Shown: piece after piece, positions 14,799 through 43,084 of the stretch | How the letters are laid out: each line of letters opens with the position of its first letter | How positions within the stretch are numbered: position 1 is the stretch's first letter | IMG/VR virus record: IMGVR_UViG_2869924733_000007 | Coordinates: 1-43,624 of that record | Reading direction: 5' to 3' (one strand) | Length of the DNA: 43,624 nt | Source: a virus | Taxonomy: Duplodnaviria; Heunggongvirae; Uroviricota; Caudoviricetes | Translations under genes and position numbers: made by a program | Notes under the pieces: generated by a model | Told to the model about the DNA's origin: nothing | What the model saw: only the letters and a program-made list of their open reading frames with translations | Databases searched by the model: none

Positions 14799-15153
14799 TT
14801 TCAGGAGGATTTATGGCGAAACCTTTTACTCCCGAACAGCGGGAAGAACTGAAGACGCGAATTGTGGAACTCGTGCATCAGGACGGTCGGGTCACGATTC
14901 GGCAGTTGTCCGATGAAACAGGTATCAGTCGTGCGTCTGTCGGTCGCTTATGCATAGAACTGGTCGCAAGTGGTGATGTATATAATTCTGGCTACGGCTT
15001 ATTCCCGTCTGAACAGGCTCGCAAGGACTGGCAAAGCGCCCGCAAAAAACTCTCGAGAGTAAAGGTGAGGAAACCATCTGTGGTTGATCTGGATCTTATC
15101 TGGTCATTACTGAGGTGTACTGGCAATAGCGGACACTACCATTTGTTCTTTTT

Positions 15154-15972
15154 TTAAGCAGCCATCTGATGATATTGTTCCCTGAAGGCTGCCGGGGAGA
15201 TATTCCCCAGACGAGAGTGACGACGCTGACGATTGTAGAAAATCTCAATGTATTCCCGTATTACTGAGATGGCTTCATCCCGGTTATTAAAACGATAGTG
15301 GCTCAGGCTCTCATTTTTCAGCGTTCCCCAGAAGCTTTCCATCGGAGCGTTGTCGTAACAGTTACCTTTACGCGACATTGATGTTTTCAGACCAAACTGC
15401 TCCTGTATGACCCGGTAATCGTATGCGCAGTACTGTGAACCTCGATCAGAGTGGTGGATTAGCCCGGCAGGTGGGCGCTGGCTCCTGAGCGCCATAAACA
15501 GGGCTTTACCTGTCAGCTCTTTTGTCATGCGCTCTCCCATGGCGTAGCCGACAATTTCGCACGTATAAACATCTTTGATGCCAGCGAGGTACAACCATCC
15601 CTCCTGTGTGGCAACATACGTCAGGTCCGCCACCCAGACCTGATTTGGTGCTGTAGGAGCGAACGTCTGGTTCAGCAGATTTGGCGCAACTGGCAGATTG
15701 TGGTTCGGGTTCGTAGTCGCTCTGAACTTGCGTTTCTGCTTACAGCGTAGCCTTAGCTCCTTACGAAGACGTGCCAGTCGGTCACGACCAACGATGATGC
15801 CATTCTCTGCCAGCTCCGTCTGGAGCCGCCGGGTTCCATATGTTTCGCGAGTGCGGATATGTGCCACCTTAATCTCCAGTTTTAGCCGCTCATCACTTTG
15901 TTTTCTGTCTGAGGGTTCATGCTGTACCCAGTTGTAATAACCGCTCCTGGATACACCAAATACCTGACACAT
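15154..15972 (-). CDS. IS600 OrfB (copy 2; W14 variant)
   Basis: 272-aa ORF. YYNWVQ instead of YYNRVQ. Confidence 0.9.
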   Translation of the reverse strand: MCQVFGVSRSGYYNWVQHEPSDRKQSDERLKLEIKVAHIRTRETYGTRRLQTELAENGIIVGRDRLARLRKELRLRCKQKRKFRATTNPNHNLPVAPNLLNQTFAPTAPNQVWVADLTYVATQEGWLYLAGIKDVYTCEIVGYAMGERMTKELTGKALFMALRSQRPPAGLIHHSDRGSQYCAYDYRVIQEQFGLKTSMSRKGNCYDNAPMESFWGTLKNESLSHYRFNNRDEAISVIREYIEIFYNRQRRHSRLGNISPAAFREQYHQMAA

Positions 15973-16049
15973 CGCTTCAATGGGAAATTGTTGTCGCCAT
16001 TGTTCGATTAACGCGTATTTTTCAGCGACTCCTGTGCAAAATACGCTGT

Positions 16050-17270
16050 TGTAGATTCAATCTGTCAATGCAACACCCCTTTCAATTATCTCTTTCGGTG
16101 TTTTGAACTTCAGTGTCTTTCTCGGTCTGTTGTTTAGCTGAGCAGCAACCAGATCTAGTTCATGTTGAGTATATTGGGCAAGACATGTCTTTTTAGGAAA
16201 GTACTGCCGAATTAGCCCATTTGTGTTCTCATTTGTTCCCCGCTGCCAAGGACTCTGAGGATCGCAGAAGTAAACTTTAACGCCGGTGCTGACAGTAAAT
16301 TCTAGATGTCTGGCCAGTTCCATTCCTCTGTCCCATGTCAGTGATTTTCTGAGTTCTGACGGTAAACTCAGGAATTTGTCGGTAAGAGCCTGATTTACTG
16401 AGACAGAATCTTTGCCCCTGAGTCTAAGGATGATCGTATAACGTGATTTTCGGTCTACAAGTGTGGCTATATGAGAGTTTTTTGTACCTGAGACTAAATC
16501 GCCCTCCCAATGCCCCAGAGAGCGTCTGTTATCGATATTTCGGGAACGTTCGTGAATTGGTGTTCCGTTCACTATGTTAATCGTACCTCTTTCGCCTTTG
16601 CGGGTATGACGCCTGCCATGGCGAAGGCTATGCGACCGTCGCAGATGCTGTATATTCAGGTGGTGTAGCGCTTCACGGCTACGAAAGTACAGCGTTTTAT
16701 AAATTGTCTCAGGTGATATTCGCAGCGTTTTTTGACGTGGTTTTGTTCGCCTTAACCATCCTGATATTTGCTCTGGAGACCATTTCATCTCCAGCTTTTC
16801 CAGAACAAGCTTTCGCAATGGTAAATTTTGATCCAGTAAGCACGGTTTTGGCCTTTTCGCCATTCTGTTGGCTCGGTTATTAGCATCAACAGCTTTGTAA
16901 TAGCGTCTGCCCCGATTACGCTGAACTTCACGTGAGATCGTCGAAGGACTGCGATTCAGCGCAGTAGCTATCGCACGAATGCTCATTTTGGCTGACAAAC
17001 CAGCTCGTATCTCCTCGCGCTCAGACAGTGTCAGGTGAGCTACAGCCCGCTTACGCTCATGGGGTTTTATGCCGCCAGTATCCCTTAACATAGTGAAGAT
17101 CGTTCCGGGTTTTGAACCCAGGATATTCGCTATTTCACTGAAGCCTGTTCCGTTCTTCCATAGTTCAAAAACAGAGGCTTTTTCCTCTGCTGTAAATGTT
17201 CGTCTCATTCAAAAAACCTCCGCAACCCCATGTTTTCACATAACTGTTGCGTTGACCAATTGAATCTACA
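16050..17270 (-). mobile_element. IS30 nested in copy 2
   Basis: Same IRs, same internal position, AC/AC flanks. Confidence 0.95.
16057..17208 (-). CDS. insI: IS30 transposase
   Basis: 383-aa ORF identical to the other copies. Confidence 0.95.
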   Translation of the reverse strand: MRRTFTAEEKASVFELWKNGTGFSEIANILGSKPGTIFTMLRDTGGIKPHERKRAVAHLTLSEREEIRAGLSAKMSIRAIATALNRSPSTISREVQRNRGRRYYKAVDANNRANRMAKRPKPCLLDQNLPLRKLVLEKLEMKWSPEQISGWLRRTKPRQKTLRISPETIYKTLYFRSREALHHLNIQHLRRSHSLRHGRRHTRKGERGTINIVNGTPIHERSRNIDNRRSLGHWEGDLVSGTKNSHIATLVDRKSRYTIILRLRGKDSVSVNQALTDKFLSLPSELRKSLTWDRGMELARHLEFTVSTGVKVYFCDPQSPWQRGTNENTNGLIRQYFPKKTCLAQYTQHELDLVAAQLNNRPRKTLKFKTPKEIIERGVALTD

Positions 17271-41198: not shown

Positions 41199-41275
41199 CG
41201 CTTCAATGGGAAATTGTTGTCGCCATTGTTCGATTAACGCGTATTTTTCAGCGACTCCTGTGCAAAATACGCTGT

Positions 41276-42496
41276 TGTAGATTCAATCTGTCAATGCAAC
41301 ACCCCTTTCAATTATCTCTTTCGGTGTTTTGAACTTCAGTGTCTTTCTCGGTCTGTTGTTTAGCTGAGCAGCAACCAGATCTAGTTCATGTTGAGTATAT
41401 TGGGCAAGACATGTCTTTTTAGGAAAGTACTGCCGAATTAGCCCATTTGTGTTCTCATTTGTTCCCCGCTGCCAAGGACTCTGAGGATCGCAGAAGTAAA
41501 CTTTAACGCCGGTGCTGACAGTAAATTCTAGATGTCTGGCCAGTTCCATTCCTCTGTCCCATGTCAGTGATTTTCTGAGTTCTGACGGTAAACTCAGGAA
41601 TTTGTCGGTAAGAGCCTGATTTACTGAGACAGAATCTTTGCCCCTGAGTCTAAGGATGATCGTATAACGTGATTTTCGGTCTACAAGTGTGGCTATATGA
41701 GAGTTTTTTGTACCTGAGACTAAATCGCCCTCCCAATGCCCCAGAGAGCGTCTGTTATCGATATTTCGGGAACGTTCGTGAATTGGTGTTCCGTTCACTA
41801 TGTTAATCGTACCTCTTTCGCCTTTGCGGGTATGACGCCTGCCATGGCGAAGGCTATGCGACCGTCGCAGATGCTGTATATTCAGGTGGTGTAGCGCTTC
41901 ACGGCTACGAAAGTACAGCGTTTTATAAATTGTCTCAGGTGATATTCGCAGCGTTTTTTGACGTGGTTTTGTTCGCCTTAACCATCCTGATATTTGCTCT
42001 GGAGACCATTTCATCTCCAGCTTTTCCAGAACAAGCTTTCGCAATGGTAAATTTTGATCCAGTAAGCACGGTTTTGGCCTTTTCGCCATTCTGTTGGCTC
42101 GGTTATTAGCATCAACAGCTTTGTAATAGCGTCTGCCCCGATTACGCTGAACTTCACGTGAGATCGTCGAAGGACTGCGATTCAGCGCAGTAGCTATCGC
42201 ACGAATGCTCATTTTGGCTGACAAACCAGCTCGTATCTCCTCGCGCTCAGACAGTGTCAGGTGAGCTACAGCCCGCTTACGCTCATGGGGTTTTATGCCG
42301 CCAGTATCCCTTAACATAGTGAAGATCGTTCCGGGTTTTGAACCCAGGATATTCGCTATTTCACTGAAGCCTGTTCCGTTCTTCCATAGTTCAAAAACAG
42401 AGGCTTTTTCCTCTGCTGTAAATGTTCGTCTCATTCAAAAAACCTCCGCAACCCCATGTTTTCACATAACTGTTGCGTTGACCAATTGAATCTACA
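41276..42496 (-). mobile_element. IS30 nested in copy 5
   Basis: Same IRs and position. Confidence 0.95.
41283..42434 (-). CDS. insI: IS30 transposase
   Basis: 383-aa ORF. Confidence 0.95.
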   Translation of the reverse strand: MRRTFTAEEKASVFELWKNGTGFSEIANILGSKPGTIFTMLRDTGGIKPHERKRAVAHLTLSEREEIRAGLSAKMSIRAIATALNRSPSTISREVQRNRGRRYYKAVDANNRANRMAKRPKPCLLDQNLPLRKLVLEKLEMKWSPEQISGWLRRTKPRQKTLRISPETIYKTLYFRSREALHHLNIQHLRRSHSLRHGRRHTRKGERGTINIVNGTPIHERSRNIDNRRSLGHWEGDLVSGTKNSHIATLVDRKSRYTIILRLRGKDSVSVNQALTDKFLSLPSELRKSLTWDRGMELARHLEFTVSTGVKVYFCDPQSPWQRGTNENTNGLIRQYFPKKTCLAQYTQHELDLVAAQLNNRPRKTLKFKTPKEIIERGVALTD

Positions 42497-42759
42497 GTTG
42501 CTTTTTTTAATATATCTCGCTCAAGGCGAGCTTCATTTAACGCCTTACGCAGTTGCAGAATTTCAGATTCCAGTTCAGCCACCGTGCGGGAACCAGGAGT
42601 ACCGAGCCCTTTTCTGGCGGCGGTAACCCATTGTCCTAAAGTGCCTTCAGGAAGGGATAATCGGGAAGCGCCTTCACTGATCGAAAATTGATTTTCAAGA
42701 ACCGTTCTGACAGCTTCGGCTTTGAACTCTTTAGAGTAACGTTGGGTTTTTCTGCTCAT
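42391..42759 (-). CDS. IS600 OrfA / IS30 chimeric ORF (copy 5; L25F variant)
   Basis: ENQFSISEG instead of ENQLSISEG. Confidence 0.85.
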   Translation of the reverse strand: MSRKTQRYSKEFKAEAVRTVLENQFSISEGASRLSLPEGTLGQWVTAARKGLGTPGSRTVAELESEILQLRKALNEARLERDILKKATVDSIGQRNSYVKTWGCGGFLNETNIYSRGKSLCF

Positions 42760-43084
42760 TATTAGCTCCTTCTGATGCCATTCTATTTCAGGAAGGAGTG
42801 TCCGTTAAACTCAGGCTACCTCAGGATGTTCGATAGCGCGAGTTTGAATGAAAATCAGCCGGAGATGATTTTACATAATTGCTACGGAATTATTCAATAC
42901 AGGAATTGCTTGCGTCTGCATGGATTGACCTGAAATATTCCCGAAAATTTCTCTAAAAAACTCGAAAAAAATGGTAACTGGTTGAATGTATTAATATGCA
43001 ATGGTACGTGTCAGGGATTAAAAGATGAACGTAAATTTATTCAACGCATTAATTTTAAAGGGTTTTATTGTTTGTTGACGAAAG

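Follow-up and report, generated by a model that had tools for sequence, protein, structure and literature searches.

Ectopic gene conversion and concerted evolution of bacterial repeats have been described before, as outlined in the review of Santoyo and Romero (2005) and, for insertion sequence (IS) copies, by Cordaux (2009), both cited in PMC3004938, and recent long-read examples of gene conversion between repeats have come from M. tuberculosis (PMC12046097). IS30 is described as preferring nearly palindromic hot spots, where it generates a 2-bp target duplication (PMC9333248 and its references 20-22), and in E. coli K-12 IS911A is interrupted by IS30A, as annotated in NC_000913.3 and noted in PMC9333248. 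In addition, an IS can be inverted by recombination between its terminal inverted repeats (Ling and Cordaux, 2010; PMC3004938). In this study, we analyzed a 43,624-bp stretch of DNA (IMG/VR record IMGVR_UViG_2869924733_000007, positions 1 to 43,624; hereafter the window), which is a 100% match to roughly positions 3,019,375-3,062,998 of Shigella dysenteriae CP027027.1 and is set in a decayed prophage with Rac-like and lambdoid remnants. The window contains five copies of a nested element, IS600 interrupted by IS30 (IS600::IS30), whose few differences occur in conflicting combinations. We present evidence that these combinations very probably arose by ectopic recombination or gene conversion between IS600 copies.

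Like the repeats in known cases of bacterial gene conversion, these dispersed near-identical copies appear to exchange short patches; they share strain-specific alleles, and the same locus differs between strains at sites that are variable among copies. Unlike in those cases, the repeats are nested elements, exchange yields new combinations besides homogenising, and it is seen only in the IS600 arms, as the copies have no IS30 differences to begin with. As in IS911A::IS30A of K-12, IS30 lies in an IS3-family element just 3' of an A-rich frameshift motif, with an AC duplication and in the same orientation, whereas the host element is IS600 rather than IS911. Unlike the single degraded copy of K-12, the nested element is present in at least six copies in this genome, each with both IS600 ends, and 3-bp duplications are found in four of the five window copies. 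The one fixed position, the two orientations and the 2-bp duplication all resemble IS30 hot-spot targeting. As in the case of Ling and Cordaux, an IS is found in opposite orientations at one locus in related strains, although the reversed IS30 here is better accounted for by a new insertion or replacement than by an internal flip.

Results

Conflicting allele combinations among the nested copies

The five copies, named A to E in the order of copies 1 to 5 of the first-pass annotation (a model's reading of the sequence), are each exactly 2487 bp long, lie in both orientations and differ at six positions, all of which are substitutions in the IS600 arms (Table 1). A sixth copy of the same genome, 78 kb upstream and flanked by the target duplication TAT, is named locus F. 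At OrfB codon 15 (counted from ATG; CGG/TGG), copies A, C, and D have R, and copies B and E have W. At OrfB codon 266 (CAA/AAA), copies A to C have Q, and copies D and E have K. A third informative site is the silent codon 51 of orfA, which is GGG in copies A and E and GGA in copies B, C, and D. The other three variants are each confined to a single copy within the window: L25F of orfA in copy E, silent A37 in copy C, and silent L100 in copy D. The first-pass annotation had described five near-identical copies with a few differing sites and all four combinations of R/W and Q/K, and this description holds, the Q/K assignment being confirmed by translation and the conflict being strengthened by the third informative site, which it had lacked. 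It had also distributed R and W correctly among the copies, albeit with the codon numbered 14, and had placed the five copies within 15111-42823, a range outside which copy A falls. The private changes that it listed, L25F in copy E and silent changes in copies C and D, are present, except that L100 is no longer private once locus F is added.

R/Q, W/Q, R/K, and W/K all occur, and all three pairs of informative sites show four gametes. The most parsimonious tree for the five copies takes 8 steps for six sites, i.e., two extra steps (two homoplasies). Thus, the four-gamete test and the copy tree that had been proposed as a check exclude a homoplasy-free tree. When locus F is included, L100 becomes informative, five of the six site pairs are incompatible, three extra steps are needed, and the Hudson-Kaplan minimum is three recombination events. 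Five copies were also simulated on recombination-free coalescent trees, conditioned on six segregating sites; ~3e-4 of runs contained one or more incompatible pairs, and ~5e-5 contained three or more. By four-gamete, simulation, and parsimony analyses alike, the incompatibility exceeds what mutation gives, as expected of gene conversion.

None of the six variable sites among the five copies lies in the 1221-bp IS30 (element positions 328-1548; p = 0.017), the sequence of which is identical across all five copies. Similarly, the IS600 arms account for 17 of the 21 polymorphic positions in a table of 24 copies (p = 0.005). IS30 is either of more recent origin than the IS600 copies or completely homogenised. 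Because the IS30 parts are identical, any exchange within IS30 would leave no trace, and the visible variation lies only in the IS600 arms.

The same loci in sister strains

We compared the same loci in five strains including this one, retrieving the sister loci via flank-specific proteins from CP026824.1, UYIS01000022.1, PSSP01, and AFFZ01. The CP026824.1 assembly (sequences L085 and L088) has many 1-bp deletions relative to the window, which break IS30 and other open reading frames (ORFs) and are probably sequencing errors, and only the substitutions of this assembly were used. The alignments are collinear across IS boundaries, and the gene order between copies is the same among strains. At locus A, the R/Q of this strain contrasts with R/K in two sister strains. 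This strain and CP026824.1 share W/Q at locus B, where UYIS has R/K, and at locus C the R/Q found here corresponds to R/K in one sister strain and to W/K in a second. Locus D has GGA here and in PSSP, and GGG in two others. At locus F, two strains differ at four sites, two of which are shared polymorphisms. These same-locus differences hit positions that are variable within the genome, always with the same two alleles.

The six loci together give 34 locus-by-position discordances, which are confined to 19 positions. Five of these are each affected at three or more loci, among them element positions 217, 1668, 1923, and 2421 (three to four loci each). When the discordances were placed at random, any position reached three or more loci in <6e-4 of trials. 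Furthermore, a strain-specific allele may be common to several loci of its strain; examples are 232C and C at IS30 position 47 (PSSP) and 2238A (loci A and D of CP026824.1). Such sharing across loci is the hallmark of concerted evolution. In a comparison of this strain with UYIS, the IS600 arms differ by 2.9 substitutions/kb, as compared with 0.48 in the unique flanks and 0.27 in IS30 (Fisher p = 0.001 and 0.006, respectively). Fixed loci thus gain alleles of other copies in the five-strain comparison, as gene conversion predicts.

Independent assemblies bear out most of the allele states locus by locus, namely R/W throughout loci A to E, K at D and E, Q at B, L25F at E, and L100 at D. Only Q at copies A and C and silent A37 in copy C are seen in this assembly alone. 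The assemblies do resolve individual copies, given that markers tied to one locus are seen repeatedly; L25F at locus E, for example, is present in four independent assemblies (this one and those of three other strains).

Distribution and polarity of the alleles

Reference alleles were taken from plain IS600 copies of S. flexneri SFBU1023 and 'E. coli' ECMA0423, found by an IS600 motif scan of genome contigs. Plain IS600 in these two genomes has GGG, W, CTG at L100, and K, and the nested copies of E. coli have GGG and K as well. Judged by these outgroup states, copy E is canonical, i.e., in the IS600 state, at all three informative sites, and copy C is derived at all three. The exact OrfB sequence with W/K is found on 359 contigs (its E. 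coli S89 form on at least 1000), that with R/K on 30 contigs (its E. coli S89 form on 257), and that with W/Q on three. The R/Q sequence is found on one contig, which is this genome, and is recorded nowhere else. This fourth gamete is specific to this strain. In contrast, R/W is an old polymorphism, which occurs in nested copies of E. coli as well as in plain IS600 from a different Shigella genome. The Q, GGA, and L100 alleles are confined to nested copies of this lineage, except for GGA at the IS30-free locus C of CP026824.1. Exact look-ups with the R/K and W/K OrfB sequences returned only copies of other genomes and no further copies of CP027027.1.

Structure and identity of IS600::IS30

In gene orientation, the 2487-bp repeat unit consists of IS600 (1-327), IS30 (328-1548), and IS600 (1549-2487). 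IS600 belongs to the IS3 family and is 1264 bp long, which is what remains after removal of the 1221-bp IS30 and its 2-bp AC duplication (2487 - 1221 - 2). Plain IS600 copies that are full-length and free of gaps, 44 in total from Shigella and E. coli genomes, match the IS600 arms at >99% identity. Their termini are TGAGG...CCTCA, and 3-bp target duplications flank four of the five window copies as well as locus F. IS30 has its 1221 bp, its 2-bp target duplication, and a 383-aa transposase with HTH_38 and rve domains, which is annotated by RefSeq as WP_001254932.1, 'IS30-like element IS30 family transposase', and its first 30 nt are those of IS30A of K-12. On near-identical E. coli DNA, RefSeq records IS600 interrupted by IS30, with the feature 'IS3-like element IS600 family transposase'.

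The IS30 insertion point is 4 bp 3' of the A AAA AAA G slippery (frameshift) motif of IS600 (junction at window positions 4145-4190 for copy A). As a result of the insertion, orfA reads on into IS30 (122 aa) and is severed from orfB (272 aa). The two ORFs and the slippery motif are all retained, with Pfam domains HTH_Tnp_1 and rve, but they do not form the joined ORF of IS600. Because IS30 separates orfA from orfB, the OrfAB fusion transposase cannot be made from the nested copies, which are defective IS600 derivatives.

A search of 5426 complete E. coli genomes with copy C (window 22095-24581) as the query recovered the nested element in one place, with at least 80% query coverage, in 997 of them. 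The E. coli nested copies from this search are polymorphic for R/W as well. No paper mentioning IS600, IS30, and Shigella dysenteriae together was found among those searched, and the papers on IS600 and IS30 that were opened do not contain the nested element.

Table 1. Nested IS600::IS30 copies and their IS30 parts in the window, and sister loci at which IS30 is absent or reversed (positions of sister loci refer to the sequence named)
Feature	Position	Strand	Details
Copy A (copy 1)	3839-6325	+	Target duplication TGG; orfA codon 51 GGG (4055), R15 (5506), Q266 (6259); 100% identical to CP027027.1
Copy B (copy 2)	15111-17597	-	Target duplication TAC; GGA (17381), W15 (15930), Q266 (15177); same haplotype at locus B of CP026824.1
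Copy C (copy 3)	22095-24581	-	Target duplication AAA; GGA (24365), R15 (22914), Q266 (22161); private silent A37 GCC (22846)
Copy D (copy 4)	33880-36366	+	Flanks AGT / GAC; GGA (34096), R15 (35547), K266 (36300); silent L100 TTG (35802)
Copy E (copy 5)	40337-42823	-	Target duplication GGA; GGG (42607), W15 (41156), K266 (40403); orfA L25F (42687)
IS30 in copy A	4166-5386	+	1221 bp; duplication AC
IS30 in copy B	16050-17270	-	
IS30 in copy C	23034-24254	-	Transposase ORF 23041-24192
IS30 in copy D	34207-35427	+	
IS30 in copy E	41276-42496	-	
Sister locus, L085	16119-18298		CP026824.1; IS30 absent or reversed
Sister locus, L088	8413-9676		CP026824.1; IS30 absent or reversed
Sister locus, L087	10299-12785		IS30 absent or reversed
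Sister loci, L094	7193-9676, 13624-16110		IS30 absent or reversed

Copy D has no target duplication and bridges a portal-gene fragment and a 5'-truncated tail-fibre gene (region 33252-38117), and the same junction is present in CP026824.1 and UYIS01000022.1. This arrangement marks copy D as the product of a deletion between two IS600 copies, in which prophage head and tail genes were lost. The absence of a target duplication at the deletion junction shows that IS600 copies have indeed recombined here.

IS30 state at the IS600 loci

IS30 is in the forward orientation at all loci of this strain. However, it is absent at the IS600 loci C and E of CP026824.1, the latter of which nevertheless keeps L25F, and it lies in the opposite orientation at locus B of UYIS and at loci D and E of PSSP. 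Each of these reversed IS30s is an exact reverse complement of the whole element, asymmetric tips of the terminal repeats included, and therefore looks like a fresh insertion or replacement. For the same reason, an internal flip of IS30 between its terminal repeats is unsupported. The inference of the first-pass annotation had started from simple copy-and-diverge descent; since some of these IS600 loci have no IS30 or an inverted one in sister strains, this premise is softened, and some nested copies may have formed in place rather than by spread as a unit. The IS911A of K-12 carries IS30A at the homologous position, and both its orientation and its AC duplication match those of the IS30 in IS600 here (L107, 2020-2045 and 3260-3285). 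Together, these insertions suggest that the frameshift window of IS3-family elements is a hot spot for IS30. The arms of the IS30 insertion site in IS600 are palindromic at only 7 of 18 positions.

Surroundings of the copies

The window is very rich in ISs, with at least eight IS copies in its 43.6 kb. A 1160-bp element encoding a 343-aa DDE_3 transposase (IS630-like) is present as two identical inverted copies (1703-2862 and 20253-21412), and in strain UYIS a further copy has inserted into the locus A IS30. The interval between copies B and C contains an ORF of 407 aa (18274-19497, +; 397 aa in the database gene call) that encodes a DDE_Tnp_1 transposase domain. Rac-type remnant markers include a phage integrase gene (735-1745, -) and a trkG-like potassium transporter gene (27824-29299, +). 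The nearest E. coli match of window positions 6400-15000 has 97.8% identity over 88%. Between copies D and E lies an ipaH-type gene (38297-40012, -) encoding a type III secretion leucine-rich repeat (LRR) domain and a NEL E3 ligase domain.

Discussion

The incompatibilities among the nested copies are real, and fixed loci have changed alleles after the divergence of the strains, reusing alleles of other copies. The first-pass annotation had offered recurrent mutation on the one hand and recombination or gene conversion on the other, and it is the latter that is favoured by the same-locus comparison across sister strains. In the simplest scenario, homologous recombination would occur ectopically between the IS600 arms of different copies, most likely as short non-reciprocal patches (gene conversion), with one copy serving as the repair template for another. 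In this scheme, the RecA dependence, the non-reciprocal exchange, the patch length, and the donor copies are what we infer. As codon 15 did not change along with it, the K-to-Q patch at loci A and C would be shorter than ~820 bp. The sister-strain table reveals no reciprocal partner pattern, and its four markers are too few to identify donors. Conversion from plain IS600 as the sole source of variation would fit copy E and the invariant IS30, but it is ruled out by the distribution of Q, GGA, and L100. As these alleles are nearly confined to nested copies of this lineage, exchange among nested copies would also be needed.

Several points weigh against recombination between copies as the explanation. 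The copy set is limited to six retrieved copies of this genome. The markers are too few to fix donors and patch boundaries, and the direction of change at each locus is read from outgroup states only. Moreover, Q at loci A and C is supported by a single assembly, and, since the R/W polymorphism is old, part of the pattern at that site could predate this genome.

Alternatively, the mosaic may be older than the nesting, if IS30 inserted at a hot spot into IS600 copies that already differed, or if the copies came on different prophages. In keeping with this, IS30 is missing from loci C and E of CP026824.1 with L25F still in place at the latter, it is reversed at three sister loci as a whole-element reverse complement, as expected of fresh insertions, it is found at the same site of IS911A in K-12, and it shows zero variation against six sites in the arms. 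However, an older mosaic would merely shift the four-gamete conflict to the IS600 copies without removing it, and would leave unexplained the allele changes at fixed loci between close strains. We therefore consider it unlikely as the explanation of the conflicting combinations, although it is compatible with recombination between copies and is probably true in part.

Reciprocal exchange would take the form of paired inversions (flip and flip-back) with differing crossover points between copies of opposite orientation, and seems quite unlikely. The copies do lie in both orientations 4-34 kb apart, and copy D documents an event of the reciprocal type, namely a deletion. However, the gene order between copies is collinear among strains, and, while Q is present here at loci A, B, C, and F, no Q copy of the sampled sister strains has become K here.

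An assembly or polishing artefact, in which variants would be shuffled among the 2.5-kb repeats by mis-mapping of reads during consensus polishing, is very unlikely. It draws some weight from the fact that Q at loci A and C, the source of the R/Q combination, comes from one assembly, and from the many 1-bp deletion errors clearly carried by the sister assembly CP026824.1. Nevertheless, most allele states recur at the same loci in independent assemblies. If Q at A and C is disregarded, three combinations of R/W and Q/K remain, but the conflicts at element positions 217 and 1923 persist. In addition, mis-polishing should pull the minority state to the majority state, and a change of K to Q would run in the opposite direction if copies A and C truly had K, the majority state.

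Recurrent point mutation, i.e., the same substitutions arising independently at mutational hot spots in different copies, is hardly credible, for although R/W (CGG/TGG) is polymorphic in several IS600 lineages (including E. coli nested copies and plain IS600 in CP026845.1) and lies in CCGGG, which, speculatively, would be prone to deamination given a CCNGG methylase, it would need at least two coincident hits among ~8 events in 2.5 kb, which occurred in only 3e-4 to 5e-5 of the simulated runs, it would have to strike five positions at three or more loci each with always the same two alleles, and it would have to repeat the K/Q change, an A-to-C transversion that makes repeated independent mutation implausible and yet differs between strains at three loci. 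A Dcm hot spot at the R/W site is rejected, as the context is CCGGG and not CCWGG.

Gene conversion among dispersed bacterial repeats, IS copies included, is already established, and the conversion between IS600 copies proposed here is a new, well-resolved instance of it. More unusual, as a side observation, are the IS30 hot spot in IS3-family elements and the strain-to-strain differences in the IS30 state at the same loci. It is tempting to speculate, if only tentatively, that IS30 is specifically drawn to the frameshift window of IS3-family elements and, in this Shigella lineage, has repeatedly entered, or been converted into, IS600 copies in either orientation, silencing their transposase while the arms keep exchanging. 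If true, IS30 would be a recurrent, site-specific inactivator of another IS.

In summary, the nested IS600::IS30 copies of this S. dysenteriae genome provide a clean, locus-resolved example in which the IS copies of an IS-laden pathogen very probably exchange sequence after insertion. Because the phenomenon is already established, the practical consequence is modest. The variable state of IS30 at the same loci is a caution that nested ISs need not spread only as units. Furthermore, because copies exchange sequence after insertion, trees of IS copies and molecular clocks based on their divergence would mislead in Shigella.

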